From a bacterium (lineage in GTDB: Bacteria > Zhuqueibacterota > Zhuqueibacteria > Residuimicrobiales > Krinioviventaceae): DNA of 64,000 bases. The stretch spans positions 2,368,001 to 2,432,000 of the forward strand of contig OY843751.1 of assembly GCA_963693055.1 (NCBI GenBank). The letters are read 5' to 3'. The position numbers and the translations under genes are program-made. Positions 12,557-31,054 of this stretch are shown here, piece after piece. Below the pieces are notes generated by a model. The model did not search any database. It was not told the origin of the DNA and saw nothing but the letters and a program-made list of their open reading frames with translations. Position 1 is the first letter of the stretch. Each line of letters starts with the position of its first letter.

Positions 12557-13426
12557 TTATTGTTTGGGTATCCATGAATCAACAACTTGCATATTGTTGT
12601 TCATCCATTCACGTGCAACGGTTTCAACATCTTGATTAGATTCCTGGATTTTGACCATAAGATCAGAAAGTTGTGCGTCAGTAAATGAAAGGTTCTTTAA
12701 GAAATTAAAGAGCTCAGGTTTATCTTGCTCAAGGGTTTTGCGTCCCATAATGTGAATATTGCCTTTTTTCCACATCATTTTATCTTCATCTTGTTTAAGG
12801 AATTTAAGATCCCAGCGACCAAATTTCCAATGTGGTTTCCAACCCGTTACAACAATCCATTCCTTGTTGTCAATGGCTTCTTTGAGTGCTGCTGCCATTG
12901 CCGGGCCGCTTGAAGAAAGCAATTTAAAGTCGAGATTATACAGATCAATCAACTCTTCTGTAGTTTTCATGATTCCCGCACCGGCATCAATTCCAGTAAT
13001 TTGACCATTGAATTTTGCCTTGTTGGCATTCATTTCTGATATTTTATCAATCGTGACATAGGTGGGCACAACCAAACCGCTCTGTGTACCTTCATAAACA
13101 TGTCCCAGATCTACAATGTCATTTTTAAATTTTTCTACATAGTCTTTGTGCAGAACCGGCAGCCAGGTTTCCATAAACGCATCCTGGTCGCCTTGTGCTA
13201 CTGAAGTATAAGCAGGTCCCACATCTGCAGCTGTTAATTTAACAGTATAACCCATTTTATCTTCAAGTACCACTTTTGCCAGGTTGGTATAAGCAATACC
13301 TTCTGCCCAATTTACATAAACAAGATTTGCAGTTTTACCTGATTCGGTACTTTTTGAACATCCTGTAAATCCTGCCGTAAATATTATTGCAGCAAGAAAG
13401 AGTATTATTGTTTTTTTAATATTCAT
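12557..13426 (-). CDS. proX: glycine betaine/proline ABC transporter substrate-binding lipoprotein (OpuAC/ProX)
   Basis: Lipobox FTGC; NWAEG, ETWLPVLH, GIDAGAG, TGWKPHW aromatic cage. Confidence 0.92.
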   Translation of the reverse strand: MNIKKTIILFLAAIIFTAGFTGCSKSTESGKTANLVYVNWAEGIAYTNLAKVVLEDKMGYTVKLTAADVGPAYTSVAQGDQDAFMETWLPVLHKDYVEKFKNDIVDLGHVYEGTQSGLVVPTYVTIDKISEMNANKAKFNGQITGIDAGAGIMKTTEELIDLYNLDFKLLSSSGPAMAAALKEAIDNKEWIVVTGWKPHWKFGRWDLKFLKQDEDKMMWKKGNIHIMGRKTLEQDKPELFNFLKNLSFTDAQLSDLMVKIQESNQDVETVAREWMNNNMQVVDSWIPKQ

Positions 13427-13428
13427 TA

Positions 13429-14268
13429 TTAACTCCTTTTCGTTTGTTGTGTCTTTGAGCCCAAAGCATGAGTGACTCTATCTAAAAATATTGCTAAAAT
13501 GACAATTGAAATTCCGCTTTCAAAACCCAAACCAATATTGAGTTGTGTAATACCTTTTAATACTTCGTTACCCAAGCCACCAGCCCCAATCATACCAGCT
13601 ATAACCACCATAGATAAGGCCAGCATAATGGTTTGGTTAACGCCTGCCAGTATAGTTGGCAGTGCCACCGGCAACTCTGCTTTGAATAGTATTTGGTTTG
13701 GAGTAGAGCCAAAAGACTTGGCAGCTTCTTTTATCTCATGAGGAACTTGACGTATGCCAAGGTTCGTCAAGCGTACCGCAGGCGGCATAGAGAAAATTAA
13801 TGTAGCTACAACACCTGGTACCTCACCCAGTTTGAAGAATAATACAGATGGAATCAGGTATACAAACGCTGGTAGTGTTTGCATAAAATCCAATATGGGA
13901 CGTACAATACTTTCAACCAGATCGCTTTTAGATGACCAAATACCCAAGGGTATAGCAATGACAAGAGCAATGATTACTGATGTAATAACCAGGCTCAGGG
14001 TTTGCATTGTTGGTTCCCAAAACCCCATGGTATAGATAATAAACATTCCAATGAATGTGAAAATGGCTATACCTCGTTTTGCTGTAACCCAGGCAATAGC
14101 ACTAAAGATAACTATAACCAGAATGGGATGCAGAAAGAGTAGAACATTGGTAAATGTATTCAATATTGTTGAAATGGTTAATCCCATTCCATCAAATACA
14201 GGTTCAAAATTATTAGTTAACCAGTTGATTACATGCTCAAAAGTTTCACCAATTTTTAAATCTATCAT
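13429..14268 (-). CDS. proW: glycine betaine/proline ABC transporter permease (OpuAB/ProW)
   Basis: LDFMQTLPAFVYLIP, EAA motif, GVNQTIMLALSMVVIA. Confidence 0.95.
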   Translation of the reverse strand: MIDLKIGETFEHVINWLTNNFEPVFDGMGLTISTILNTFTNVLLFLHPILVIVIFSAIAWVTAKRGIAIFTFIGMFIIYTMGFWEPTMQTLSLVITSVIIALVIAIPLGIWSSKSDLVESIVRPILDFMQTLPAFVYLIPSVLFFKLGEVPGVVATLIFSMPPAVRLTNLGIRQVPHEIKEAAKSFGSTPNQILFKAELPVALPTILAGVNQTIMLALSMVVIAGMIGAGGLGNEVLKGITQLNIGLGFESGISIVILAIFLDRVTHALGSKTQQTKRS

Positions 14269-14295
14269 TTTATTAACTCCTGTGACAATTTTAAA

Positions 14296-15522
14296 TTATG
14301 CAGAATACTCGTTCAAAGAGACCGGAGTAATAGATTCAGCGCTTTCACCACCGACTTCTGCAATAATTGATGCCTGGTCAACCACTCCTAAAAGTTTTTT
14401 ATTTTCATCTATTACTGCAAGTGGATAGTTGGCCACAAGTGCAGTTGGAAGCAAATCTGCAATAGATGTGTCTGGTGTTGTTAAATAGATATCTTCAACA
14501 AGTTCAGCTTCAACAGATTTTTCTTTATTTTGTTGCAATTTTACCATGTCTTTTACATGTACAATACCTTTTAAAATGCGGTCTGAATCAACTGCAAACA
14601 AGGTTGATTGTCCATGTTTGTCCATTGTCCTCACTGCCACACCAGGGCCATCTTTGGGAATTGTTATGGTATATGGCTTTCTCATAATTGCCGATGCTGT
14701 AATAACTTTGGTACGATCAACATTTAACAAAAATGCTTTTACATAATCATCTTTGGGCTCAGTCAATATTTCTTCCGGGGTACCAATCTGAATGATTTTT
14801 CCACCGTTACCCATAATTGCAATACGATCACCCAATTTTAAAGCCTCATCAAGATCATGAGTAATAAAAACAATCGTTTTATGCATCTTGGCCTGTAATT
14901 CAAGCAATTCATCTTGCATTTGCGTCCTAATAAGAGGATCAAGTGCGCTAAATGCTTCATCCATCAATAATATTTCCGGATCATTTGCTAAAGCTCTGGC
15001 CAAGCCTACTCGTTGCTGCATACCACCACTCAGTTCATTGATCATGCTCTCTTCATATCCTTCAAGACCAACCAGTTTAATTGCCTCAACGGCTTTTTGA
15101 GCACGTAAAGATTTTTCAATACCCGAAATTTCTAATCCATATTCAACATTATGTTGAACAGTGCGATGTGGTAATAGTCCAAAATGTTGAAAAACCATAG
15201 ACATTTTTGTTCTGCGAACCTCGCGCAATTCTTCTTTATTCATTTTAACGATATCGTTACCATCTATTGATACAGTGCCCCGGGTGGGATCAATTAATCT
15301 GTTTAAACAACGTATTACGGTTGATTTTCCACTACCCGAGAGCCCCATAATTACAAAAATTTCTTTTCTTTCTATCGAAAAAGAAGCATTGTCAATTGCT
15401 ACTGTGTTTCCTGTTTTTTTTAATATTTCTTTCTTTGAAAGGCCTTTCTCTAATAGGGGAAAGGCCTTTTCGGGCTTTTGTCCAAAAATTTTATAAAGAT
15501 TTTTAACTTCAATTACACTCAT
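14296..15522 (-). CDS. proV: glycine betaine/proline ABC transporter ATP-binding protein with CBS domains (OpuAA/ProV)
   Basis: GLSGSGKST, LSGGMQQRVG, LLMDEAFSALDP, ITHDLDEA, C-terminal CBS pair. Confidence 0.95.
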   Translation of the reverse strand: MSVIEVKNLYKIFGQKPEKAFPLLEKGLSKKEILKKTGNTVAIDNASFSIERKEIFVIMGLSGSGKSTVIRCLNRLIDPTRGTVSIDGNDIVKMNKEELREVRRTKMSMVFQHFGLLPHRTVQHNVEYGLEISGIEKSLRAQKAVEAIKLVGLEGYEESMINELSGGMQQRVGLARALANDPEILLMDEAFSALDPLIRTQMQDELLELQAKMHKTIVFITHDLDEALKLGDRIAIMGNGGKIIQIGTPEEILTEPKDDYVKAFLLNVDRTKVITASAIMRKPYTITIPKDGPGVAVRTMDKHGQSTLFAVDSDRILKGIVHVKDMVKLQQNKEKSVEAELVEDIYLTTPDTSIADLLPTALVANYPLAVIDENKKLLGVVDQASIIAEVGGESAESITPVSLNEYSA

Positions 15523-15553
15523 GGATCAATTCCTTTCTCATCAATAATGGATA

Positions 15554-16720
15554 CTAGAAATAGTATCCAAAATTTATATTGTATCTAATATTCCAATCTG
15601 CTTCGCTGTCACCTATGCCCAGGCCTTTACCAAAATTTTGGGTGATCCAGGGTTGATTTTTGCCCATGGCAACATCAAAATAGGTATATACTCCTCCGGC
15701 AACTGTAAGAAAGCCTAATATATTTTGTTGAGTATCTGTAAAGGAAGAGACTGTTTTATCTGTCAATGTATAGTCATTATAGAATTGTATACTGGATATC
15801 GGTCCCAGGCTAACAGGTACTGTATATGCAAGACCCAGAGTATATACCATTGCTTCAGCAGCAACAGCGTATGTTCCTGAACCATATGCACCCATTTGTA
15901 CAACATCCAGTTCTGTACCCAGATCATTTTTAACATCATGGTTATAATAAATGGCGTGTACCTTGGCGTTTAAGTTACCAACATTCGCATCAATGTGACC
16001 GGCAACAGCCTTATGGCTGCCTGATTTATTTAAAACAGAATTGAAGATTTGTCCATATTGTACAGATAAACCTACTTCTGAATTGCTGAATTTGTAAGCT
16101 GCTCTTGCATTGATTTGGTTTCTTTCCTGATTATGCTCACCTTCCACAGGAATGATATCGTATGAATAACGTCCTGAACCACCAACGCCATAAGAGACAT
16201 CACCTGGTGCCGGGCCAGCTGGTTCAGGTTGGAAATAATATGCTAATGCAAAATCCCAATTGTCTTTCTTATGCAGAAACTTTAATCCCATATCATAATC
16301 ATCTTCAAGTCCCATATAATAGGCACCCGAAAACCACCAACTGTGAGAAGCATAGGCTTGATCTCCAAAGGGAACCTGTGATACACCCAACTGGACCTGA
16401 GTCTGTTCAGTTATATCATAACCAAACCATCCATGGTGAATAAAATGCGTATCAAAAGTGGGATAGAAGCGATATTCAAAGCTCAAGATTATACCCGCAG
16501 AATTTTTTCCATCAATGTTTATTCTCCAGGTGTCCCAGGTAAACTGGCCATCATTTGTTGTAATATTGTCATCTTCATAATCCTGTAACATGAGATTGTA
16601 CCTAACAGCACCACCAAATTTTATTTCTGAATCAGCAGCATATATAACAGAAAAATTAGACATAATAAATATTATCAATAAAACACAATATACTCTTTTA
16701 TACATGTTTCCAAGTATCAC
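15554..16720 (-). CDS. outer-membrane porin heading the betaine ABC operon
   Basis: AGGAG RBS before GTG 16720; signal peptide; amphipathic beta strands; C-terminal NINFGYYF. Confidence 0.75.
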   Translation of the reverse strand: MILGNMYKRVYCVLLIIFIMSNFSVIYAADSEIKFGGAVRYNLMLQDYEDDNITTNDGQFTWDTWRINIDGKNSAGIILSFEYRFYPTFDTHFIHHGWFGYDITEQTQVQLGVSQVPFGDQAYASHSWWFSGAYYMGLEDDYDMGLKFLHKKDNWDFALAYYFQPEPAGPAPGDVSYGVGGSGRYSYDIIPVEGEHNQERNQINARAAYKFSNSEVGLSVQYGQIFNSVLNKSGSHKAVAGHIDANVGNLNAKVHAIYYNHDVKNDLGTELDVVQMGAYGSGTYAVAAEAMVYTLGLAYTVPVSLGPISSIQFYNDYTLTDKTVSSFTDTQQNILGFLTVAGGVYTYFDVAMGKNQPWITQNFGKGLGIGDSEADWNIRYNINFGYYF

Positions 16721-17641: not shown

Positions 17642-18589
17642 ATGAAAACAAAAAATATCTTGAAATTAGTTGTTTTTGCAATTTGGGTTGGAATTGTGGG
17701 TTTAAATGTGCATTTTTTAAATGCAAAGGAAGATAGCATGAAATATAACAAACTAACGCCTGATGAAGAGCGTGTCATTATCCAAAAGGGAACGGAAAGA
17801 CCCTATACCGGTCAGTATTACAAGTTTGATGAAAATGGTACCTATACCTGTAAACGTTGTGATGCGCCTTTGTATAAATCGTCAGACAAGTTTGATGCCC
17901 ATTGCGGATGGCCCAGTTTTGATGATGAAATTAAGGGAGCCGTAAAGCGCCAGACTGATGCTGACGGGCATAGAACTGAAATCTTGTGTGCCAACTGTGG
18001 TGCGCATTTGGGCCATGTTTTTACCGGTGAGCAGTTTACCATAAAAAATACACGTCATTGTGTAAATTCTATATCTTTAAATTTTGTACCCGCAGGAGAA
18101 ATGATGCAAACACAAAATGCCTATTTTGCAGGTGGATGTTTTTGGGGAACGGAATACTATTTTCAACAGGCCAAAGGAGTGAAAAGCACTACTGTTGGCT
18201 ATATGGGTGGCGACAAAGATGATCCTACTTATAAAGAGGTGTGTAATGGTACTACCGGTCACGCTGAAGTTGTAAAGGTAGAGTTTGATCCCAAGCAAAC
18301 GGATTTTGAAACACTGGCAAAATTGTTTTTCGAGATCCATGATCCTACTCAGGTTGATCGTCAAGGCCCCGATATTGGTGAACAGTACCGCTCTGTAATT
18401 TTCTTTACCAATGATGATCAGAAAATGACATCGGAAAAGTTGATAGATATTTTAAAGGACAAAGGATACAAGGTTGCAACAGAGCTGGTTAAAGCTGATG
18501 ATTTTTGGGATGCTGAAGACTATCATCAGAATTATTACCAGCACAATGGTAAAGAACCTTATTGTCATTTTTATACCAAGCGGTTTTAA
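17642..18589 (+). CDS. msrAB: bifunctional methionine sulfoxide reductase MsrB-MsrA with N-terminal signal/anchor
   Basis: MsrB: GTERP, CKRC, GWPSF, CANCGAHLGHVF, RHCVNS; MsrA: AGGCFWG, GHAE, QYRS, AEDYHQNY. Confidence 0.95.
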   Translation: MKTKNILKLVVFAIWVGIVGLNVHFLNAKEDSMKYNKLTPDEERVIIQKGTERPYTGQYYKFDENGTYTCKRCDAPLYKSSDKFDAHCGWPSFDDEIKGAVKRQTDADGHRTEILCANCGAHLGHVFTGEQFTIKNTRHCVNSISLNFVPAGEMMQTQNAYFAGGCFWGTEYYFQQAKGVKSTTVGYMGGDKDDPTYKEVCNGTTGHAEVVKVEFDPKQTDFETLAKLFFEIHDPTQVDRQGPDIGEQYRSVIFFTNDDQKMTSEKLIDILKDKGYKVATELVKADDFWDAEDYHQNYYQHNGKEPYCHFYTKRF

Positions 18590-18716: not shown

Positions 18717-19760
18717 TTATTTCAAGAGAGACAGTTTGTTTACAATCTTTTGACTACCAGTATTGATTTCATAAAAGTACATTCCGCTTGACATATATTG
18801 ACCGTAACGATTGGTTCCATTCCAATTCTGACTGTGAATGCCTTCTGCAAGGTATCCCATATCATAGTCCATCACCAATTGTCCGCGAATGTTATATATT
18901 TTCAATGTTACGTTTGCCGGTTCAGCAAGAGAAAACTGAATTGTTGTTCCCGGATTTGCAGGATTTGGATAATTTGAAGCCTTGATTGCAGAATTGGCGG
19001 TTTCAATGCTACCCTGCTGATTTGCCGGATTTGTACAGCCAATATTTTTTTTACCAAGACCTTTTCCGCGTCCTTGTCCATTACCACCACGTTCAATAGC
19101 AGATTCAATAATTTCTGTAAATTCTTCTACCGAAATATATTGTGGTTCATATGTCAAACCCTGTGCTGTATAAAAGTTGTTAAACGCTCGCATATGATTT
19201 CTTGAACCTTTTAAAAGGTTAGTATAAACCAGGGTAATATCCTGATTGTCTGTACGTTCAAGTGTTTCATGCAGATCATTGATATCCAGATCTTCAATGG
19301 TTAAACCAACATACAATGCTTCTATCAGAGACTTGCTGCCTGATTCTACCAGGCTGTTATAGATTGCCTGCAAATCTGCATTACTGAATTTTCCTGCTTC
19401 TTCTAAATAAGGATCTTCAAGTTCATATTTATCGATCAAAAGTTTAACCATATCTGTGTGCTGCTGTTCACTTTTCGCGATATTGGTGAAAACTGCGGAT
19501 TGCCATTTTTCATATAATACCAGATAAACGTCTCGTGCGAGTTTTTCTTCTTCACGCATATGTAACAGATCATTTATTTCGTCTTCTGACAAATCTTCGA
19601 ACGGCAAGTCTGCTAAAATAGTAGAAGCGTTTATACCCCCGGTATTCCCTTTGTTACCGCAGTTACCAAAATTTCCTCTACCCTGAGCAAAAAGTGATTG
19701 GCTTGTAGCGAATGCAACAAGCAACAATGCTGCAATTAATAATGTTTTAGAGTTTTTCAT
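18717..19760 (-). CDS. secreted DUF2202 ferritin-like protein with C-terminal FlgD-Ig/T9SS-like sorting domain
   Basis: Signal peptide; MREEEKLARDVY, SEQQH, IEDLDI, GSRNHMRAF; tail NYPNPANPGTTIQF...IYNIRGQLV...SSGMYFY...KLSLLK. Confidence 0.85.
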   Translation of the reverse strand: MKNSKTLLIAALLLVAFATSQSLFAQGRGNFGNCGNKGNTGGINASTILADLPFEDLSEDEINDLLHMREEEKLARDVYLVLYEKWQSAVFTNIAKSEQQHTDMVKLLIDKYELEDPYLEEAGKFSNADLQAIYNSLVESGSKSLIEALYVGLTIEDLDINDLHETLERTDNQDITLVYTNLLKGSRNHMRAFNNFYTAQGLTYEPQYISVEEFTEIIESAIERGGNGQGRGKGLGKKNIGCTNPANQQGSIETANSAIKASNYPNPANPGTTIQFSLAEPANVTLKIYNIRGQLVMDYDMGYLAEGIHSQNWNGTNRYGQYMSSGMYFYEINTGSQKIVNKLSLLK

Positions 19761-19797: not shown

Positions 19798-19813
19798 TGC
19801 AAGGGGTGTGCCA
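19798..19813 (-). promoter_or_regulatory. sigma-54 (-24/-12) promoter of DUF2202 gene
   Basis: Minus strand TGGCAC-ACCCC-TTGCA, a perfect TGGCAC-N5-TTGC, 37 nt upstream of the ATG. Confidence 0.85.
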
Positions 19814-19872: not shown

Positions 19873-19937
19873 TGTCAGAACGAAAGATTTCGACGACTCG
19901 GGCGAAAAATATCGACAATTTGGTCGAAATGTCGAAC
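19873..19937. promoter_or_regulatory. putative upstream activator sites (CGAAA..TCGA repeats)
   Basis: CGAAAGATTTCGAC, CGAAAAATATCGAC, GTCGAAATGTCGAAC clustered midway between two sigma-54 promoters. Confidence 0.55.
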
Positions 19938-20004: not shown

Positions 20005-20020
20005 TGGCATAACAATTGAA
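20005..20020 (+). promoter_or_regulatory. sigma-54-like promoter of the Fe-S operon
   Basis: TGGCAT-AACAA-TTGAA (GA instead of GC at -12), 61 nt upstream of ATG 20082. Confidence 0.6.
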
Positions 20021-20081: not shown

Positions 20082-20465
20082 ATGAAGGCAAAGTTAATAT
20101 TGTCTGCAATATTTGTTTCAATAGCTCTTAATTTTACAATCGCGTCTGCTTGTGAAATTGAGGTTACCGTTAAAGGAGAAAATGCAGCTATATATAATCC
20201 CGGGCAAGTAGTGGTTTTGCAAGTCAAAGTATTTCTAACTCATAAAGATTGTCCTGAAGGAATCAAGTCAACGAAAATGAATCCAACCGGTATGACCTTG
20301 CTAGGTGCAACCAAATGGAAGCAAATATCTGAATTGGAATTTATTCGATTGGTGCAGGCAAAAATTGATTCTTCTGTCACAGAAGCAATTCTAAATGTTG
20401 GCCGCTCTTGTGATAAAGAGGGTGGTATAGGTAAAATACTATTAAAAGTTGGTCAGGGCTCATAA
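20082..20465 (+). CDS. small secreted hypothetical protein with Cys/His residues
   Basis: AGGAGG RBS; signal peptide ending ASA-C; LTHKDCP and RSCDKEGG. Confidence 0.75.
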   Translation: MKAKLILSAIFVSIALNFTIASACEIEVTVKGENAAIYNPGQVVVLQVKVFLTHKDCPEGIKSTKMNPTGMTLLGATKWKQISELEFIRLVQAKIDSSVTEAILNVGRSCDKEGGIGKILLKVGQGS

Positions 20466-21490
20466 TGAGGAACATCTTAATTATTGTTTTATTGTTTATG
20501 AGTGGAATCTCTTTTGCTCAGGATACAGATTCTGCGGAATTATCATTTGAAGATTTTGGTGCTGAATTTGAATCCATTTCAGATACTGAATTGGGGGATA
20601 TATCTACTTCAACCCACTCTTGTTCTACCATTGCAGGTATGCCAAAAGGATTGTACTATTCTCTTATTGCACTATCAATGACTTTAATTGCTGGTATTTT
20701 TGTCAAATTCAAAGCCCTGCGCAAATTCCGTTATCTTTTTCTATTGTTGTCATTGGTTGTTTTTGGATTTTGGAACGGTGGCTGTCCCTGCTCTATTTCA
20801 AGTTTTCAGAATGTATTTTTAACGATTTTTGGTGCAACCGTTAACTGGCACAGTCTTGTATGGTTTTTAGGATTAATTCCCATTACCTATATTTTTGGCA
20901 AAGTCTGGTGTGGTTGGGTTTGTCATTTGGGTGCCTTTCAGGAATTTTTGTACAGAATTACAGATGTGAAAATTGTAAAATCTAAAGGTTTCCAAAAATT
21001 TCTAAAAATTTTACAATATAGCGTTTTCGTAATTCTTGTGATTCAGTTGTTTGTAACCAAAACCAATATTTTTATCCATTATGATCCATTCAAAGTTGCT
21101 TTCAATATGATTTCTTTTCATACATCTGGCTGGATTTTGCTTGGCGTATTACTTGTGAGTTCATTATTTATTTACCGACCTTTTTGTAAAGGGTTTTGTC
21201 CTGTTGGTTTGGCATTAGGTTGGGTTGGCAAGATACCCGGTGCACATAAACTCCAGATTTCCGGCAGCTGTTCAAGCTGCAAATCCTGCATCCGTCATTG
21301 TAATATGCAGGCAATCACGGATGACTTTAAAGCCGACAGTCATAGCTGTATTTTATGCGGTGATTGTCTGGACTATTGTAAAAAAGAATCTATTAAAGTT
21401 ACGTATAAAGGATTACAGAATGAAAAAAATATTGATCTTGTTGTTCCTGATTTCAAGCTTGAAACCATTGATAGCGAGAGACTGTCATAG
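20465..21490 (+). CDS. NapH/MauN/YccM-like membrane 4Fe-4S protein (putative quinol oxidoreductase module)
   Basis: Signal peptide, several TM helices, GCPCS, WCGWVCHLG, FCKGFCPVG, C-terminal CSSCKSCIRHC and CILCGDCLDYC; TAATG coupling with upstream gene. Confidence 0.88.
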   Translation: MRNILIIVLLFMSGISFAQDTDSAELSFEDFGAEFESISDTELGDISTSTHSCSTIAGMPKGLYYSLIALSMTLIAGIFVKFKALRKFRYLFLLLSLVVFGFWNGGCPCSISSFQNVFLTIFGATVNWHSLVWFLGLIPITYIFGKVWCGWVCHLGAFQEFLYRITDVKIVKSKGFQKFLKILQYSVFVILVIQLFVTKTNIFIHYDPFKVAFNMISFHTSGWILLGVLLVSSLFIYRPFCKGFCPVGLALGWVGKIPGAHKLQISGSCSSCKSCIRHCNMQAITDDFKADSHSCILCGDCLDYCKKESIKVTYKGLQNEKNIDLVVPDFKLETIDSERLS

Positions 21491-22721
21491 CGATATTGGG
21501 ATTCATTTAAAACCCATCATACCCAATTTACAATGGGCTGTTGAAACCTCCGCTGCAATTGGTCAGATGTCTGGTAGCGGTATTGATAGAAGACTAAATA
21601 CTGAATCTTTATTTTGGGCTTTGGATTTTACACCTGAAAAATTTGAGATCTATCTTGAAGGTGGACTCAAGTACTGGCAAAAGTCTGATGATGGCCCCGG
21701 TTTGGGTGCAATAGTGAGTGGCTGGGAAAGTTTACCCAAGCCTGAACAACGTAATTTTGGTATGCGCGAAGCCTATTTCAGATTCAATTTATTGAATACC
21801 AAGGTAACCATGGGTTTGCAGTCAATGACTTTGGGAACAACCATGCTGCTTGATGAGCGTGTGTTAGGTGTTGCAAATAGTTATGAAAAAGGACATTACA
21901 AACTCGAATTAAAAGGTGGTACTGTTTCTACTGACTTTGCACGCATGAATGATTTTTGCGGAACGCGTCATGTTTACAGGTTGTTACGAGGTGGACGGTT
22001 TGATATGGTAGCTACAGAACCTGGTAAAACCAATTTTTATGCTGCATCGATAACTTGGAATGCCGAAGAGCCTGTAGAAGTCGTTTCAGGCGATGAGAGT
22101 GAATTTGAAATGGAATCTTTTTCGGATTTATCATTTGAATCTTTCGACGAAGAAGAGAAGCAAATCGTTAAAAATGCCGGTCTGTTATTTTATCAGGAAT
22201 TTGGCTCAGGTTTTTTTGACTACAAGTATTATGGCGGTGCTTTTTCTGATGTCCTTTTGCCATTTGATGTTGATATGCATTTGGAAATGATATATCAATA
22301 TATCTGGCATGAACAGACTGCTGCCTTTAAAGGACAATTTAGCAAAAATTTCAGTATTTTTCCTGCATATCCCTTTTCTACAAGCCTCTCATATTATGGA
22401 GTTTATGAGGTAAGTCAGGATGCCCGGTTTTTTCCGGCATTCAGCAACCTTTATCTGGGTGAAGTCAGCCGGTTGGATGCATTGCATATGCCCTTATTGG
22501 TTGTTGATGTTAAGCAATACTTGCCTGGCAAGCTGGAGCCAACACTCCGTTTGCAGTATGTAAACCAGATCAAATTTGATCACAACACCGAGTTGGATTT
22601 TCAATTATCAGCCAAATTGTTTAAAGGATTCAGAACAATTATCACATTGAGTAAAATTGATTCAGATTTACTTTCAGAATCAGTAATGCTCAATAAACTT
22701 GAATGTCGTTGGTCATTCTAA
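21420..22721 (+). CDS. putative outer-membrane beta-barrel protein
   Basis: Signal peptide MKKILILLFLISSLKPLIA from ATG 21420; porin-like REAYFRF...VTMGLQ; alternating strands; C-terminal aromatic LECRWSF. Confidence 0.7.
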   Translation: MKKILILLFLISSLKPLIARDCHSDIGIHLKPIIPNLQWAVETSAAIGQMSGSGIDRRLNTESLFWALDFTPEKFEIYLEGGLKYWQKSDDGPGLGAIVSGWESLPKPEQRNFGMREAYFRFNLLNTKVTMGLQSMTLGTTMLLDERVLGVANSYEKGHYKLELKGGTVSTDFARMNDFCGTRHVYRLLRGGRFDMVATEPGKTNFYAASITWNAEEPVEVVSGDESEFEMESFSDLSFESFDEEEKQIVKNAGLLFYQEFGSGFFDYKYYGGAFSDVLLPFDVDMHLEMIYQYIWHEQTAAFKGQFSKNFSIFPAYPFSTSLSYYGVYEVSQDARFFPAFSNLYLGEVSRLDALHMPLLVVDVKQYLPGKLEPTLRLQYVNQIKFDHNTELDFQLSAKLFKGFRTIITLSKIDSDLLSESVMLNKLECRWSF

Positions 22722-22734
22722 TCAGGAGAACAGA

Positions 22735-23556
22735 ATGAATTCGGATAGAAGAATTTTTATTAAAAATTTAGGTGTGCTTGCTGCATCATCAGCAGTAGGT
22801 ATACTTGCAGCATGTACCAAACATGGTGTGAATCCTTTAGAATATGTTGATATCTGTCAAAACACCTGTACCGGCTGTGGTGATTGTGTTGAATCCTGTC
22901 AGGATAATGCAATTCTGCTCGAACAAAAATCAACATATATCATTGATAAAGATGATTGTACTGAATGTGGACAGTGTGTTCCTCACTGCAAGCTTGAAGC
23001 TATCCATATCTCTTCAAGTCAATATATCCTGGATTCTAAAGAATGTATTGGATGTGGTTTGTGTATTGATGTGTGTGATCAGGAAGCAGAGGCAATTGTT
23101 TGGGAGAGAGAAGAGTACCTGGTACGCGGAAAATGCCGCAACACCCATTGTAATTTTGAATGTGCTGCAGCTTGTCCTGAAAATGCAATAACCATTGTCA
23201 ATAATACAGCCGTTATAGATATGGAAAAATGCACACGTTGTGGATTGTGTATCGCTCCATGTCCAGCAGATGCAATTAATCCTGCTCATGTTGAAATGGT
23301 TGTTGATCAATGTACCCGATGTGGAAAATGTTTTGATGTATGTGAATTTGATGCAATTAGCAAAGTTGAACCGGAAGGATATTTTGATCCTCATATAGAT
23401 GATGAGGTTTGTAATGCATGCTCGGAATGTAAAGATTCCTGCCCCGAAAATGCTATTTATGGTAAATTGTACAAGGCACAAATTGATAGCGAAAATTGTA
23501 CAGCATGTGGTGAATGCTTTGAAAAATGTACGTATGATGCCATACGGCATGTATAA
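22735..23556 (+). CDS. Tat-exported lipoprotein polyferredoxin (8 x 4Fe-4S motifs)
   Basis: AGGAG RBS at 22724; DRRIFIK twin-Arg, lipobox LAAC; seven CxxCxxCxxxC motifs plus one variant. Confidence 0.88.
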   Translation: MNSDRRIFIKNLGVLAASSAVGILAACTKHGVNPLEYVDICQNTCTGCGDCVESCQDNAILLEQKSTYIIDKDDCTECGQCVPHCKLEAIHISSSQYILDSKECIGCGLCIDVCDQEAEAIVWEREEYLVRGKCRNTHCNFECAAACPENAITIVNNTAVIDMEKCTRCGLCIAPCPADAINPAHVEMVVDQCTRCGKCFDVCEFDAISKVEPEGYFDPHIDDEVCNACSECKDSCPENAIYGKLYKAQIDSENCTACGECFEKCTYDAIRHV

Positions 23557-23557
23557 A

Positions 23558-24496
23558 TTATATATCTCTCACACAGCGGAATCCCATATTGCCTGACGAG
23601 CTGTCGGGAGAATTTGAACTTCGTGCAGCAACACGATACCGATTACAATAAGATTTATGACATAGATATGAACCACCCCGCATAACCCTGTTGGTACCAT
23701 CCGATGGGCCAACAGGATTTACTCTAGTATTATTGATATGAAAAGTAGGGTGGAACCAATCCGCGCACCATTCCCATACATTCCCGCAAACATTATATAA
23801 TCCAAAATCATTCGGAATAAATGATTTTGCCGGAGCTGTACCTATAAATCCATCATCGACTGTGTTTTGAGTAGGAAATGTACCTTGCCATACATTGCAC
23901 ATGTGCTTACCTTCAGGTTCGAGCTCATTGCCCCAGGGAAAGATGGTTTGTTCTCTGCCTCCTCGTGCGGCAAATTCCCATTCGGCTTCTGTGGGTAAGC
24001 GTTTACCGGCCCATTGGCAATAGGCATTTGCATCATTCCATGATACATGTATTACCGGATGGTCCATTTTGTTACTGATAGTTGAAAGCGGACCTTCAGG
24101 TCTTCTCCAGTTGGCCCCTTTAACAGCAAACCACCAGGGTGTTTGTGCTGCCTGTTGGCTGTTTTTTGTAATAGCGGGAGGTAGAAACATGTGGAAAACA
24201 TAGGTCCAGCCAAATGATTCAGCTTCGGTTTTGTATCCTGTTTCTTTAACAAATTCAGCAAATTGTTGATTGGTTACTGTTGTTATATCAATCATAAATG
24301 GAGATACCGTAACCTTGCGAACCGGTCCTTCACCATCTGCGGGAAAACCTTTTTTATCATCTGTACCCATAAGAAATGTGCCGCCCGGCAGCTCTATCAT
24401 TTCATTGGATTCTGGAATATGTGTTGAAACACCAATGTTAATTATTTCCCTGGTTGATTTACTATTCCTGGGCGGGCCGCAACATTGCTTACTCAT
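23558..24496 (-). CDS. formylglycine-generating enzyme (FGE/SUMF1)
   Basis: FLMGTD, HPVIHVSWNDA, RLPTEAEWEFAARGG, GNVWEW, RGGSYLCHKSYCNRYRVAAR, GFRC. Confidence 0.92.
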   Translation of the reverse strand: MSKQCCGPPRNSKSTREIINIGVSTHIPESNEMIELPGGTFLMGTDDKKGFPADGEGPVRKVTVSPFMIDITTVTNQQFAEFVKETGYKTEAESFGWTYVFHMFLPPAITKNSQQAAQTPWWFAVKGANWRRPEGPLSTISNKMDHPVIHVSWNDANAYCQWAGKRLPTEAEWEFAARGGREQTIFPWGNELEPEGKHMCNVWQGTFPTQNTVDDGFIGTAPAKSFIPNDFGLYNVCGNVWEWCADWFHPTFHINNTRVNPVGPSDGTNRVMRGGSYLCHKSYCNRYRVAARSSNSPDSSSGNMGFRCVRDI

Positions 24497-24726
24497 TGTA
24501 ACCTCTTTATTTTATTAACTTATAGAGTGTAAGGATGTTTAAAACGTTTAATGATATCCATATATTCCTGTCATTTTTGTTAATAAGATAATTGTTGTTG
24601 GTAATGACATACAATGTTTTACAATTATTGTCCATAATAGAGTGTTAATCACAGAACTTGCATGTGGTTAATACGTTATGGTTAAGAACGGAACGGAACA
24701 CGTGTAAACAACTGAGAGGAAAGCTC

Positions 24727-27165
24727 ATGAATAGACGGTTAATATACTTTATATTATTGTTATCCATATCAATCGTTTTTGCTCAACCAGGTCAAAGGTC
24801 TGGATCTGCGCGGGGTACAATAATCAAAGGGCTGGTTCAGGATAACCAGTTAAAGACACCCATTGAATATGCCAATATTATTCTTTATAAACAAAAAGAT
24901 ACCGACCAGGTTACCGGTACGGTTTCAAATAAAGAAGGTCTGTTCACATTGACTGGTGTACAACCTGGGCTTTACAAAATAAAAATCAAGTTTATGGGAT
25001 ATTATGAAAATACAGTGGATAGTGTCCGTGTTAGTGCAAACCAACCTGCAATTGATGTAGGCAAGGTGGGTTTGAATCAAACAGTGTTGATGCTTGAAGG
25101 TGTTCAGGTTGAAGCGGAAAAGGCACCGGTTGAATACAAGATTGATAGAAAAGTGATTAATGTTGATCATCAAATAACTGCTAGTGCCGGCTCTGCAGTA
25201 GATGTGCTTGAAAATGTTCCATCTATTACGGTTGATATTGAGGGTAATGTACAATTAAGAGGTAGCGGAAGTTTTACCGTATTGATTGATAATCGGCCTA
25301 CTGTTATGGACGCAAGCGATCTTTTGCAACAGATACCTGCCAGTACAATTGAGAATATCGAAATTATTACCAATCCTTCTGCCAAATATGAACCCGATGG
25401 TATGACCGGTATAGTTAATATTATTACCAAAAAGAATTCTTTACGTGGATTTAATGGTATTGTTAATTTGAATTCAGGTGTTGATGACAAGTACGGCGGT
25501 GATTTTTTGTTTAATTATCGTATGAATAATGTTAATACCTATTTTGGTATGAACTATAACCACAGATACTTTCCTGGAGATCGTATTGGAGAAAACTGGA
25601 CCGCTCAAAATGATACCATACATTACTTAAATACCAATGGTAGTAATTCAATGGATTTTACTTCTTATGGTGTTCAGGCAGGTGTTGATATTGCTCTGTC
25701 AAAACAGGATAATTTCAAAGTTGGCTTGAATTATCGTGGAAGAGGGATGGAGCATGCGAATAAATCAAATTATGAAGAATGGATTAGCACACTGACAGAC
25801 CGTGATTATTATTCAAGCACGGGTAGTTCTGAAAGAAGTGGCCCTTCTTATAATATGAATTTGGATTATCTTCACCGATTTGAAACCAAAGGACACGAGT
25901 TATCAGCTTTGTTGAATTTATCTTCAAGAAGTGGTGATGAAGAATCGCTTAATGAAAATTATAATGCTAACGGAGCAATTACAAATGGACAACGATCTGT
26001 TGAAAAAGGTCCATCCATGCGTGCTGATTTGAAATTAGATTATACCCGTCCACTAGGTGAAAACAACAAGCTTGAAGCAGGTTACCAGGGTCGATTTAGC
26101 CGCTCTAAAGATGAAAATGAACTCTATGAATATGATTTAGGTATTAGTGATTATGTGTTTCTACCACAATATAGTTATCTAACAAATTATAATCGCGATA
26201 TTCATGCAGTGTATTCCATGTATGCGGGTGAAACCGGTCCTATTGGTTACCAGGCAGGACTTCGTGGTGAATACACGAATCGAAATATTACACTGGATGC
26301 TGAAAATCAGGAATTTGCAATTGACAGATGGGACCTTTTCCCAACAGCTCATTTGTCTTTCAAGGGCGAATCCGGGCATCAAATGATGGCCAGTTATACC
26401 CGCCGCATTGACAGACCACGCGGCTATTATTTTGAACCATTCCTAACCTGGATGGATGCGTATAATGTGCGTACGGGTAATCCTGCAATCAAGCCTGAAT
26501 ATATTGATTCTTATGAAATGGGTTACCAGAAACAAGTTGGACAAAATCTATTTTCTGTAGAAACTTATTACCGCATTACTCATGACCGTGTTGAACGTGT
26601 GCAATCTGTATATGATGAAAATGTTCTGTTGCATTCAGTTGCGAATGTTGGTCAGGATTATGCATTGGGTGCCGAGTTTATGATCAACTGGGACCTGTTG
26701 TCAAACTGGAATATGAACCTGATGGGCAATATGTATGATTATCGTATAGAAGGTGAATTGTTGGGGGCAGATTTTTCACGTAGCAGCTTTAACTGGAATA
26801 CGCGTATGAATAATACATTCAAGTTAACCCAAAATTCCAGAGTACAATTTAATCTAAGATATAACAGTCCATCCGTATCTGCTCAAGGCAGACGTGAAGG
26901 CTTTTTCTCTTCAAGTATTGCCTATAGACATGATTTTCTTGACAAGCGTATTTCCATGACATTACAGGCTCGTGATGTTTTTGGAACAGAGGTACATGAA
27001 AGAATTTCAGAAGGTGATGGATTTTATTCTTATTCAAAATTTGACCGTAATACGCCTATAATCACCATGACAATGAGCTATAAAATAAACAATTTCAAAG
27101 CAAACCGTGGAAAAGGCAATGATGGTGGTGGTGGTGATGATTTTGGTGGTGAAGGTGAATATTAA
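24727..27165 (+). CDS. TonB-dependent receptor with N-terminal carboxypeptidase-regulatory-like domain
   Basis: GAGAGG RBS; signal peptide; plug IENIEIITNPSAKYEPDG..GIVNIITKK; barrel GNPAIKPE. Confidence 0.92.
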   Translation: MNRRLIYFILLLSISIVFAQPGQRSGSARGTIIKGLVQDNQLKTPIEYANIILYKQKDTDQVTGTVSNKEGLFTLTGVQPGLYKIKIKFMGYYENTVDSVRVSANQPAIDVGKVGLNQTVLMLEGVQVEAEKAPVEYKIDRKVINVDHQITASAGSAVDVLENVPSITVDIEGNVQLRGSGSFTVLIDNRPTVMDASDLLQQIPASTIENIEIITNPSAKYEPDGMTGIVNIITKKNSLRGFNGIVNLNSGVDDKYGGDFLFNYRMNNVNTYFGMNYNHRYFPGDRIGENWTAQNDTIHYLNTNGSNSMDFTSYGVQAGVDIALSKQDNFKVGLNYRGRGMEHANKSNYEEWISTLTDRDYYSSTGSSERSGPSYNMNLDYLHRFETKGHELSALLNLSSRSGDEESLNENYNANGAITNGQRSVEKGPSMRADLKLDYTRPLGENNKLEAGYQGRFSRSKDENELYEYDLGISDYVFLPQYSYLTNYNRDIHAVYSMYAGETGPIGYQAGLRGEYTNRNITLDAENQEFAIDRWDLFPTAHLSFKGESGHQMMASYTRRIDRPRGYYFEPFLTWMDAYNVRTGNPAIKPEYIDSYEMGYQKQVGQNLFSVETYYRITHDRVERVQSVYDENVLLHSVANVGQDYALGAEFMINWDLLSNWNMNLMGNMYDYRIEGELLGADFSRSSFNWNTRMNNTFKLTQNSRVQFNLRYNSPSVSAQGRREGFFSSSIAYRHDFLDKRISMTLQARDVFGTEVHERISEGDGFYSYSKFDRNTPIITMTMSYKINNFKANRGKGNDGGGGDDFGGEGEY

Positions 27166-27323: not shown

Positions 27324-28643
27324 ATGGATTTACCCAATTGTATTTCCAGTGAAATTTTAGATTCTATTGGTGAAGGTATATATACAATTGATAAAAAGTT
27401 CAAAATCAGCTTTATAAATAAAGCTGCAGAGGAAATACTTGGCGTTAGACGTGAAAAAGTAATAGGTAAATTTTGTAAACATGTCTTCAGTTCCGAAGAG
27501 TGTTTGGAAAAATGTCCCATTAGCAAGGTGTTAGATTCCGGTGAGAATGTTTATGATCATATTACAAAGTTTTATCATACCAATGGCATATCGAAAAATG
27601 TAAGGGTAAATGCTTCATTACTCCATAATTCAGATAATGAAATAGTGGGCGGGGTTGTATCATTTCGTGATCTTTCAAATGAAGAGAGTTCTGTATTAAA
27701 ATCCAAAACCATGCAGGATTTTTATGGCATTGTAGGACAATCAAAACCTATGATGGAATTATATGACCTTGTTACAGAAATTGGCAGCACATGCGCTACT
27801 GTATTGATTCAGGGTGAATCCGGAACGGGTAAAGAAATGTTTGCTAATGCAATACAGGCCTCCAGTCAGCGTAACAAAATGCCTTTTATTAAAGTCAACT
27901 GTTCGGTTTTTCCGCCGCAATTGCTTGCAAGTGAATTATTTGGACATGTCAAGGGTGCGTTTACTGATGCAATTCAAAACCGTAAAGGCCGTTTCGAGAT
28001 TGCAGACAAGGGCACATTGTTTTTGGATGAAGTTGCTGAAATGCCGTTGTCAATGCAATTACAGCTCTTACGTGTTCTGCATGAAGGAACCTTTGAAAGA
28101 GTGGGTGAATCTTTGACACGCTCTGTGGATGTAAGAGTGATTGCTGCTACAAACAAGGATTTGGATACCGCTATTAATGACGGATCATTTAGAGAAGATT
28201 TGTTTTACCGATTAAATGTGATTCCTATGCATATTCCTGCGCTTCGTGAAAGAAGAGCTGATATACCGCATCTAGTTAATTTTTTTGTGAAAAAGTTTTC
28301 ATCAACTTATCATAAAGAAATACAGGAAGTAGATGATGAAGCTATGGATTATCTAACCGCTTATAATTGGCCAGGTAATGTTCGTGAATTGGAAAATGCA
28401 ATAGAATATTCATTTATAAGAACTCATGATGATGATGTGATTTCCGCCAAAAAATTACCCGCAAATATCCGCCAGAAAAATGGCAAGTTTTTTACAACAG
28501 GGGATAGCAAGTTTTCTGAACGAGATGAAATTTTAGAAACCTTGAAAAGACATCATTGGAATAAAAGCAAAGCTGCAGATGAACTACGTATGGGCCGTAC
28601 CACTTTATGGCGTAAAATGAAAGCTATGGGCATTGAAACATAG
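27324..28643 (+). CDS. PAS-domain sigma-54-dependent transcriptional activator (bEBP)
   Basis: PAS; GESGTGKE, SELFGHVKGAFTDA, LFLDEV, FREDLFYRLNV, WPGNVRELEN; Fis-type HTH. Confidence 0.95.
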   Translation: MDLPNCISSEILDSIGEGIYTIDKKFKISFINKAAEEILGVRREKVIGKFCKHVFSSEECLEKCPISKVLDSGENVYDHITKFYHTNGISKNVRVNASLLHNSDNEIVGGVVSFRDLSNEESSVLKSKTMQDFYGIVGQSKPMMELYDLVTEIGSTCATVLIQGESGTGKEMFANAIQASSQRNKMPFIKVNCSVFPPQLLASELFGHVKGAFTDAIQNRKGRFEIADKGTLFLDEVAEMPLSMQLQLLRVLHEGTFERVGESLTRSVDVRVIAATNKDLDTAINDGSFREDLFYRLNVIPMHIPALRERRADIPHLVNFFVKKFSSTYHKEIQEVDDEAMDYLTAYNWPGNVRELENAIEYSFIRTHDDDVISAKKLPANIRQKNGKFFTTGDSKFSERDEILETLKRHHWNKSKAADELRMGRTTLWRKMKAMGIET

Positions 28644-29286: not shown

Positions 29287-29394
29287 ATATTTTTTCCTTT
29301 TAATATATCCCTAAATATCTACTTGCTATAGTATATTGCAAATACATTTGTTTTTTTTATTGGCCTTGTCATTATTTATATGTACTTTATTTAC

Positions 29395-29757
29395 ATGAAA
29401 AAAATTATGACATACACATTAATTTCTATTTATTTTAGTTTTTTCCCAATTTATCCCTATATTCATTTTCATTTGAATTGTGATGTTGATAAAGTATGTC
29501 ATCATGTTGATTTCAGTGAATGTGAACATTTTCATCATTCTGAACATCAGGAACATAAGCATTTCAAGGGTGACTGGCAGCATACCATAACCAAAGATGA
29601 TCCCGGTAAAATCCAGTCCATAAACCTTGTACATGAATACAGTTTTTACTATTCTGTAATTACCGGTGCAAGGTTACCCGAGTTCACCAATCATCTCAAA
29701 GATTCCATTCTTTACAGTCCCGATGTTTCACGGGCACCCCCTGCATTACTCGTATAA
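29395..29757 (+). CDS. His/Cys-rich leader protein with C-terminal RAPP motif (DUF2946/CruR-like)
   Basis: MKK plus hydrophobic N-terminus; HFHLNC...CHH...CEHFHHSEHQEHKH; ends SRAPPALLV. Confidence 0.7.
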   Translation: MKKIMTYTLISIYFSFFPIYPYIHFHLNCDVDKVCHHVDFSECEHFHHSEHQEHKHFKGDWQHTITKDDPGKIQSINLVHEYSFYYSVITGARLPEFTNHLKDSILYSPDVSRAPPALLV

Positions 29758-29824
29758 TTTACACCAGACAATTTCAAAATTTATTACATGAATTTCAATC
29801 TCTTTCATTAATGGAGAATTGTAT

Positions 29825-31045
29825 ATGAACCGCATTGCGAGTATTCTTCTCGTAGCAAGTGCATTGGTTCTGGCTGGGGATAATACTATTCAACTCTCGT
29901 ATACCGAGTTGGATACACTATTGTCAAACAGTCCTGTTTACCATTCACTTGACTATGAGTTTAGTGCCAAACGATATGATGTTAAACATCATTTAAACTG
30001 GCAAAATCCTGAATTTGAATTTGAACGGGACGCATTGAGCGAAAATGGTGATAAAGAAAACGAATCTGTTTTTCTGCTTGGTAAAGATTTTATGCTTCCT
30101 TGGGCTGGCTATTATCATCGTTCTGCAAAAAATGCTGAACTTGATGCAATTCAATTTTCGCAAAAAGATGGCTATTTGTTACAGTTGAACACCTTCAAGA
30201 GTTATTATATAACTCTTGCACTGTTGCAGCAAAAATCCAATCGATATATTGAATTGGACAGCTTGATGAACAAAGCATTGAATATTGCTCAGGAGCGATT
30301 TGAGCAAGGTACATTGTCCGGAATTGAAAACCGTCTTGTGCAGCTGAGCAAGTTTAATGTGCAACGAGATCGTTTTGTTTTACAACAGGAATATAAAGAG
30401 CTGCTTGCTCAATTTGCTATAAGTTTGGGATTTGGTGCTGATGATTCTCTGGATTTCTGTACGGATATTACTTTTTTACCTTTTAAATTAAAACCACTTG
30501 CAGCCTATGCGCAAGCTCTTAACAATCATCCTGTATTGGCATCTATAGCAGTTTCTCAAGATGCAAAAAAACAGCAGGTCCGTTTTGAAAAAATGGCACC
30601 CGTTTCTTCTGTGCATCTTTCAGGTGGCTATAAACAATTAAATGACACAATGGATGGGTATGTGGCCGGTATTTCAATTCCTCTTCCCATATTGAATCAG
30701 AATAAAACGGGTATTCAGAAAACAAAAGCCGAGTTGAATCAATTGCAAATTGATAATCAAATGATAACCCAAAAGTTAAATTTGCGCCTTGAGCAGCTTT
30801 ACTCAGCTCAGGAGGTTCAGCAAAAACATATGCAAACCTTTTCTGAATCATTTCATTCTGCATCACAAATTATTGATGATATTGTGTATACATTTTATCA
30901 AGGCTCTGCTGATTTTGGAGATATTCTGGATACATATCAGGTTTATACTGAGAGCATGAGCACCTATTATGATCAACTCTTGTTGTATTATAATTACCTG
31001 TTGGAACTGGAATACCTGACTCAAGAGAAAATTATTGAATTTTAG
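29825..31045 (+). CDS. TolC/CzcC family outer-membrane efflux protein
   Basis: GGAGA RBS; WQNPEFEF, AQERFEQG, GISIPLPILNQN; first structural gene of RND operon. Confidence 0.85.
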   Translation: MNRIASILLVASALVLAGDNTIQLSYTELDTLLSNSPVYHSLDYEFSAKRYDVKHHLNWQNPEFEFERDALSENGDKENESVFLLGKDFMLPWAGYYHRSAKNAELDAIQFSQKDGYLLQLNTFKSYYITLALLQQKSNRYIELDSLMNKALNIAQERFEQGTLSGIENRLVQLSKFNVQRDRFVLQQEYKELLAQFAISLGFGADDSLDFCTDITFLPFKLKPLAAYAQALNNHPVLASIAVSQDAKKQQVRFEKMAPVSSVHLSGGYKQLNDTMDGYVAGISIPLPILNQNKTGIQKTKAELNQLQIDNQMITQKLNLRLEQLYSAQEVQQKHMQTFSESFHSASQIIDDIVYTFYQGSADFGDILDTYQVYTESMSTYYDQLLLYYNYLLELEYLTQEKIIEF

Positions 31046-31054
31046 AGGGATATT

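Follow-up and report, generated by a model that had tools for sequence, protein, structure and literature searches.

Four genes without heme motifs

A compact run of four genes, A, B, C and D, lies on contig OY843751.1 of a bacterium from the family Krinioviventaceae (phylum Zhuqueibacterota; assembly GCA_963693055.1), within the 64,000-nucleotide stretch that we analyzed and call the window (positions 2,368,001 to 2,432,000). They encode an exported protein with a Cys3-His set (A), a membrane iron-sulfur protein (B), a predicted beta-barrel (C) and a polyferredoxin (D), and no CxxCH motif occurs in any of them (Table 1). A and B are joined by a TAATG overlap, B and C overlap by 71 nt, and C and D are separated by 13 nt. 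These frames, coordinates and junctions were drawn up in an earlier reading made from the sequence alone (the sequence-only reading), and all of them hold. Alternative TTG starts at 21225 (C) and 22699 (D), which give longer open reading frames, were rejected because the signal peptides start at 21420 and 22735. The same reading proposed a heme-free redox system of the envelope, and our gene-neighborhood search shows that the four genes are conserved together: the cassette is a real and undescribed variant of NapH-type extracytosolic electron modules. Our literature search, which did not extend to subscription papers or supplements, found no description of it, and Supplementary file 1 of PMC8238504 could list loci of the second type described below. 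PMC5371394 mentions a polyferredoxin with three hypothetical proteins in Ca. Tenderia (Tel_00495-00510), a possible counterpart.

We examined 80 loci, comprising 13 genome loci anchored on C and 67 metagenome loci anchored on A, and restricted counts of gene order to loci whose contig leaves room downstream. The loci are not independent: L077, L081, L085 and L089 are nearly the same, and L086 and L088 do not differ in their lists of reading frames. G000 denotes the genome that holds the window; other G numbers and L numbers denote related genomes and loci.

Table 1. Features of the cassette locus, in window coordinates.
Feature	Position	Strand	Description
DUF2202 gene, divergent	18717..19760	-	Secreted product: ferritin-like domain, Gly-rich linker, type IX secretion system (T9SS)-type/FlgD C-terminal domain
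Sigma-54 -24/-12 motif facing DUF2202 gene	19798..19813	-	TGGCACACCCCTTGCA; kept in L002
Likely enhancer for sigma-54 activator	19887..19935	.	Palindrome WTCGAC-N6-GTCGAW at 19911-19928, plus extra half-sites
Sigma-54 -24/-12 motif facing operon	20005..20020	+	TGGCATAACAATTGAA; kept in L002; similar motif upstream in G025
A	20082..20465	+	127 amino acids (aa); C24, H54, C57, C110; Sec-exported 104-aa immunoglobulin (Ig)-like beta-sandwich; family without a Pfam name
B	20465..21490	+	341 aa; NapH/NosR-type membrane Fe-S protein; signal peptide, acidic DEF-repeat periplasmic tail, 5 further hydrophobic segments (about 5 transmembrane helices)
B motifs	20465..21490	+	Periplasm-side GGCxC, CX3CH (CGWVCH), CX3CP (CKGFCP); C-terminal 2[4Fe-4S] domain with two CxxCxxCxxxC
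C	21420..22721	+	433 aa; signal peptide; C-terminal end WSF
Acidic DEF-repeat loop of C	22059..22169	+	After strand 8; low model confidence (pLDDT)
D	22735..23556	+	273 aa; twin-arginine translocation (Tat) lipoprotein polyferredoxin; SDRRIFIK; lipobox LAAC27; 8 motifs as 3+2+3

By its sequence, B is a distant relative of NapH and NosR that falls below all family cut-offs. The NapH likeness claimed by the sequence-only reading stands for the shared membrane module, with two Fer4_5 matches in a Pfam search, but not at the level of the family model (71.8 bits against TIGR02163 NapH, cut-off 213.05); scores against the MauN and NosR models are 52.7 (cut-off 234) and 52 bits (cut-off 1000). Similarly, its second CxxxCP and two ferredoxin motifs are as described, but the first supposed CxxxCP is CxxxCH. 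The CxC is present in 50 of 57 homologs; an earlier statement that CPC is invariant was dropped, with CPC in 43 of 57 members of the wider homolog set. No FMN_bind match, the sign of a flavin mononucleotide (FMN)-binding domain, was found in B at E≤0.1, and its N-terminal tail consists of about 40 acidic residues, with a [DE][DE]F motif in 41 of the 43 B tails examined. A search of solved structures matched B only via its ferredoxin domain. Elsewhere in the genome (G000:C1:2740051-2745971) there is a row containing a Tat ferredoxin, a second NosR/NapH-like membrane protein (29% identity to B) and an NADH-oxidoreductase-like gene.

At 10 loci B and C lie in one frame. A complete internal signal peptide (a basic, hydrophobic stretch, then AxA|QWEC or QWDC) directly follows the ferredoxin domain of B in all nine junctions listed, and one is also present in P0199, P0204 and P0207; the tenth fused locus, L071 (455 aa), yielded no junction. 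This position of the signal peptide places the ferredoxin domain of B in the cytoplasm, and the fused product is likely to give two proteins after cleavage. We rejected the fusions as proof that B and C touch, because they can be explained by two overlapping genes losing the stop codon that divides them while the signal peptide stays. What they show is coupled synthesis, not contact.

In protein A, C24 (the first mature residue), H54, C57 and C110 are invariant in 120 of 120 aligned sequences, and net charge is positive in 95 of the 120. Its AlphaFold2 (AF2) model has a predicted local distance difference test (pLDDT) score of 86, and a fold search with it matched nothing beyond generic Ig-like structures (Z at most 9.9). 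Neither Pfam nor NCBIfam has a family matching A above cut-off, and sequence search gave no match among solved structures at E≤10. Judging from strand order, the Cys3-His set would come together at a single tip of the Ig fold, formed by the N-terminus and two loops.

Protein D is a Tat lipoprotein with eight Fe-S motifs, as the sequence-only reading had it: it has a twin-arginine motif and a lipobox Cys, TatC is encoded in the same genome, and seven of the motifs are canonical and one is Cx4Cx3Cx3CP. Its homologs have 4+2+4 up to 7+2+7 motifs, so that totals range from the 8 of D itself to 16. We counted the motifs on either side of the fixed central pair in 25 sequences, two of which are cut by contig ends; in all 23 complete sequences from loci of the window's kind (type 1), the two numbers are equal (3/3, 4/4, 5/5, 6/6 or 7/7). 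Equal arms would be expected of two-cluster domains folded into a nested hairpin. On this motif symmetry, D would be a nested hairpin rod, anchored by its lipid at one end, tipped by the non-canonical pair and grown domain by domain. In a second type of cassette (type 2), D is replaced by short lipoprotein ferredoxins with 2-6 motifs, Ser/Thr linkers and no twin arginine, followed by a paralog of A lacking most of the Cys/His set and by a permease gene. Such lipoproteins, apparently Sec-exported, are encoded at L074-L089, L039, L047, L049 and L092.

The AF2 model of C, built from 109 sequences, has 18 strands (pLDDT 90.9; predicted template modeling score, pTM, 0.88), in agreement with the earlier proposal of an outer-membrane barrel. 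C is thus predicted to have the AlgE/OprD fold, the type found in loop-constricted solute channels. The closest structures, by Foldseek and VIA-align, are AlgE, OpdQ, OccAB3, Campylobacter MOMP and Wzi; comparisons with AlgE, OprD/Occ, MOMP and Wzi give Z 21.6-26.4 and a root-mean-square deviation (rmsd) of 3.2-4.2 Å over about 300-320 residues, the best being AlgE (Z 26.4, rmsd 3.2, 315 aligned residues). C differs from these channels in its low identity to them (8-12%), its conserved Cys pair, its acidic periplasmic loop and its redox gene context. In family searches, C matched no family above the Pfam or NCBIfam cut-offs (one Wzi match had E 0.036), 17 C homologs matched neither Alginate_exp nor OprD, sequence search gave no match among solved structures at E≤10, and the only likeness was a language-model look-alike at rank 15. 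The only conserved cysteines are Cys22 and Cys180, which are mature positions 3 (98%) and 161 (93%), and no conserved His/Met ladder lines the lumen in 100 full-length C sequences. Other conserved positions are charged strand residues and the long loops after strands 7 and 13, which are extracellular by strand parity. The DEF loop after strand 8 faces the periplasm by the same parity; [DE][DE]F is present in 83 of the 100 sequences and is the same type of motif as in the periplasmic tail of B. That the basic protein A bridges the acidic tails of B and C is a guess. Complex prediction for C and A, with D as partner, scored 0.00 in both runs, which we count neither for nor against binding. A distant branch of the barrel (P0253-P0274, about 18% identity) has look-alike clusters labeled Spirochaetota.

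Conservation and neighboring genes

The order of the cassette is largely kept across loci. B follows A in 55 of 57 loci, a separate C follows B in 41 of 44 (apart from the 10 fused loci), and D follows C in 40 of 46. The order of all four genes is kept in distant lineages, with the Cys residues, RRxF and the lipobox Cys invariant, which is more than chance would give. By record title, the genome loci include Neomarinimicrobiota, Prolixibacteraceae, Bacteroidales, Ignavibacteria and Saprospiraceae. The 6.5-Mb genome has one copy of C. Of 61 related genomes (counting the window's own), 7 have the gene or what is left of it. C homologs number 167 representatives at 50% clustering (E≤1e-3), and A has 136 matches, with Draconibacterium and Prolixibacteraceae among their names, and atlas clusters of 321, 55 and 50 members.

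Co-conservation of the four genes, which the sequence-only reading had named as a check, is nevertheless not strict: A-B occurs without C, or apart from C-D. In G010, G024 and G032 the A and B frames are intact, C is deleted or shortened, and D is damaged or missing. G063 has A-B at one locus and C-D at another, L036, L048 and L058 have A-B with no adjoining C, and at L033, L042, L043 and L055 the cassette consists of A-B-C. The unit retained as the core is A-B, and D is optional.

The earlier reading saw no catalytic subunit in the operon, and the neighborhoods agree: no terminal reductase recurs in neighbor clusters, and none is among the 19 + 40 + 13 neighbor proteins scanned. In an NCBIfam scan of 37 of the 83 co-directional neighbor clusters plus three other proteins, only two redox matches came up: ArsF at L046, where A stands alone, and, several genes upstream in L013, a cytochrome b accompanied by a 7-heme protein. 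No multiheme cytochrome recurs beside the cassette. These results bear on a respiratory explanation, in which B, D and A act as a NapGH-like quinol dehydrogenase feeding a periplasmic terminal reductase encoded elsewhere, and C only supplies substrate. NapGH, MauMN and NosGH resemble the cassette in pairing a Tat polyferredoxin with a PF12801 membrane protein that carries two CX3C motifs and, at its C-terminus, a 2[4Fe-4S] domain. B shares the NapH/NosR membrane module (PMC5928378), D is a Tat ferredoxin like NapG, and NapH-like modules are described as reused with different reductases (PMC8238504). Unlike NapH, however, B is made with a cleavable signal peptide and has an acidic tail and a periplasm-side CxC. 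Unlike the ferredoxins of NapGH-type systems, D carries a lipid and 8-16 motifs, and the cassette can lack it. The cassette also lacks a linked catalytic subunit (NapA, NosZ or MauAB) and adds an Ig-like Cys protein and a barrel. With no reductase recurring among the scanned neighbors, and with secreted stress-type proteins as the members of the predicted regulon (below), we consider the respiratory explanation unlikely.

Other neighbors may point to metals. A permease like ArsP_1/SO_0444 adjoins the cassette in 15 loci, and an ArsM-like methyltransferase gene is near seven. At L046:1067-4313, A occurs without B or C, directly 5' of arsR/acr3/arsF/arsG-type genes. On this evidence the cassette could be a unit for uptake, storage or detoxification of a metal or metalloid, with a CcoG-like B, an A that binds the ion at its Cys3-His set, C as the entry pore, and some of the Cys motifs binding cargo rather than Fe-S clusters. 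CcoG is a cupric reductase. The type-2 counterparts of D, which lack a twin arginine and look Sec-exported, are consistent with such a unit, as is the DUF2202 gene, a family present in ferrosome clusters (10.1101/2020.01.10.902569). Against it, the operon includes no permease in type-1 loci, the window's among them, export of D by Tat agrees with loading of clusters in the cytoplasm, and the ArsM neighbors stem from closely related loci. We regard this explanation, too, as improbable.

The divergent DUF2202 product matches Pfam DUF2202 with E 7e-60 and Por_Secre_tail with E 1e-9, and homologs of it are found beside the cassette in L006, L014, L044, L072 and L080. Just past this gene, an MsrB-MsrA fusion with a signal-peptide-like N-terminus (17642-18589, +) is a possible periplasmic electron acceptor; it lies beside the cassette only here and at L002. 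On the other side, a formylglycine-generating-enzyme-like gene (23558-24496, -) converges on D with a 1-nt gap and is not a recurrent neighbor. Further downstream (24658-27165 and 29380-32614, +) are genes for a TonB-receptor-like barrel, a His-rich small protein and TolC/RND-type metal efflux (the efflux genes recognized by eye), and CusA/CzcA-type genes follow the cassette in L013, L014 and L072. A glycine-betaine-type ATP-binding cassette transporter, also recognized by eye, lies behind an outer-membrane barrel gene at 12557-16720 (-). At L048, A-B is near an arsenate-reductase-like gene, again recognized by eye.

Sigma-54 motifs and a predicted regulon

The 321-bp gap between A and the DUF2202 gene contains the window's only two matches to a sigma-54 pattern, which was widened after the operon site had been seen. 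Across the genome, 30 of 42 matches to the pattern are ahead of a gene on the right strand. Between the two motifs is a palindrome that has three sites in the genome, compared to 0.13 expected per spacing and 0-1 sites found at other spacings from 3 to 10. The other two sites precede paralogous genes for secreted DxDGDG-repeat proteins, which have no family match, and one of them separates such a gene from divergent genes for a sigma-54 regulator and an AtoS/ZraS-like kinase; G024 has the same layout (39% identity). This locus (G000:C1:6189446-6195014) encodes a kinase with a Gly-rich periplasmic insert, the sigma-54 regulator (C1:6193653), the divergent DxDGDG secreted protein and a 374-aa barrel-like protein; the second DxDGDG paralog (C1:1738382-1739098) keeps both enhancer and promoter. 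By motif, the arrangement resembles ZraSR-ZraP, in which zraP is divergent from zraSR and a two-component sigma-54 activator and a small secreted protein share the enhancer between their genes (PMC4987338). It differs in that the partner is a DxDGDG-repeat protein rather than ZraP, and in that the regulon includes a redox cassette.

Related genomes show the same association. In L002, G010, G025 and G028 the palindrome precedes A, although it is not in the G024 and G032 stretches, and in a search of five relatives all five palindrome loci were at a cassette operon or a DxDGDG gene. L004, from another phylum, has a DxDGDG gene (56% identical) in the same run of genes as ABCD. On these motifs the operon and the DUF2202 gene are probably co-regulated, and the context of the predicted regulon points to envelope stress rather than respiration. 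Bacteroidota loci instead have genes for an extracytoplasmic function (ECF) sigma factor, an anti-sigma factor and a CpxP-like protein beside the cassette: an ECF sigma gene adjoins it in eight loci, one for a CpxP-like protein in seven and zf-HC2 in six.

Possible roles of the cassette

We tentatively favor reading the cassette as a stress-induced line for reductant that starts at the inner membrane and stops at the mouth, on the periplasmic side, of a channel for small solutes. B would draw electrons from quinol or, by way of its cytoplasmic 2[4Fe-4S] domain, from Fe-S donors in the cytoplasm, and hand them on to the periplasm-side CxC; quinol oxidation is suggested by the family of B. NapH and NosR modules pass electrons to extracytosolic partners (PMC5928378, PMC8238504). 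In NosR, NirI, RdhC (PceC) and the flavinylated 'NapH-like' systems, the same membrane module stands behind a periplasmic N-terminal part, with electrons presumed to flow outwards (PMC8238504, PMC5928378). Unlike NosR and RdhC, B has an acidic DEF tail and protein A in place of an FMN-binding domain. The missing FMN domain and the constant partnership of A with B favor a line from B to A and, where it is present, to D. A would be the first acceptor or a metal site, forming a core unit with B, and may serve as a dock for the acidic tails of both B and C. D, as a nested hairpin rod of 8-16 clusters, would lengthen the reach across the periplasm, and C would admit or hold a small substrate, with its conserved Cys pair. 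At the periplasmic mouth of C the line would end by reducing small oxidants or metal(loid) ions rather than exporting electrons. It would be switched on by the Zra-like sigma-54 two-component system in this genome, or by the ECF sigma/anti-sigma/CpxP-like set in Bacteroidota loci.

Several observations weigh against this reading. In number alone, two sigma-54 matches in the window fall short of significance, since 7 of 100 shuffled sequences also reach two, and only one of 63 related loci has such a motif within 300 bp of A, which makes this form of control lineage-specific. The kinase and regulator score below the ZraS and ZraR cut-offs (235 compared to 479, and 441 compared to 760), and a PAS-sigma-54 activator encoded 4 kb downstream of the cassette (27324-28643, +) could be the protein that binds the palindrome instead. 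In the Bacteroidota loci the CpxP match is weak (E 8e-4). Gene linkage also fails in places: in G062, an incomplete assembly, A, B and C are at three separate loci and no D was found, and L060 has A-C-D with no adjoining B. Lastly, proteins with a DUF2271 domain and a T9SS tail, encoded beside 11 type-2 loci, hint that electrons reach the cell surface.

The last point leads to the proposal of the sequence-only reading, a true heme-free conduit across the envelope, taken here in modified form. Electrons would pass from B to A, D and C and go out, with a thiol relay on the Cys pair of C or a surface-exposed D as the most plausible exit, to secreted carriers such as flavinylated DUF2271 or DUF2202 proteins. 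A two-cluster ferredoxin domain is about 2.5 nm long. At that length D, as an extendable rod, would span about 10-20 nm, and the Cys pair of C is conserved. C and D also stay together where they are split from A-B (G063, L060). Seven of the 12 T9SS-tailed DUF2271 proteins have [ST]GA[ST], a flavinylation motif shown for DUF2271 (PMC8238504), although four have variant motifs and one is a fragment. As in MtrAB, PioAB and Pcc, a barrel gene adjoins a gene for a wire with many cofactors. The MtrAB-like layout of a wire inside a barrel is not supported by the structural comparison, however. MtrB is a 26-strand sheath with a periplasmic aperture of ~30 Å, around a wire of 80x30x35 Å (PMC7198977), whereas C has 18 strands and a solute-channel fold, and the cassette has no hemes and an optional wire. 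MtrB was absent among the fold matches listed for C, which by itself does not exclude a relation. With 18 strands and long conserved loops, C would be an unlikely sheath for a ferredoxin rod, and it has no conserved cofactor ligands beyond its two cysteines. Of 46 barrels, 6 have no D next to them, and in type 2 there are only 2-6 motifs. Moreover, multiheme proteins with 49, 28, 20, 20 and 19 hemes are encoded elsewhere in the genome, which does not depend on the cassette for cytochrome-type conduits; the genes are at G000:C1:2005664-2009383 (49 CxxCH), 3833823-3838467 (20+28+10), 2681458-2683263 (20) and 5906965-5909766 (19).

We consider such a conduit doubtful. There is an equally small chance that its fullest form is correct, a stress-switched heme-free line through the whole envelope, in which the NapH-type module, the Cys3-His Ig carrier and a telescoping Fe-S rod, fitted to the periplasm by paired additions that take it from 8 to 16 clusters, lead to the thiol pair in the 18-strand barrel and on to T9SS-secreted flavin or di-iron proteins at the surface. 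A conduit across the outer membrane is less likely than a periplasmic role: the cassette likely carries electrons across the periplasm in envelope stress, and probably not through the outer membrane.

In Bacteroidota and related environmental bacteria, the cassette would be an uncharacterized route for reducing power into the envelope that uses neither hemes nor a flavin domain, and that is built from two families without a Pfam name and a polyferredoxin that changes length in matched pairs. The predicted regulon indicates envelope or metal stress as the condition under which to look for its activity, and it supplies candidate acceptors. Should electrons in fact cross the barrel, the cassette would represent a new class of outer-membrane conduit that escapes screens for heme motifs.

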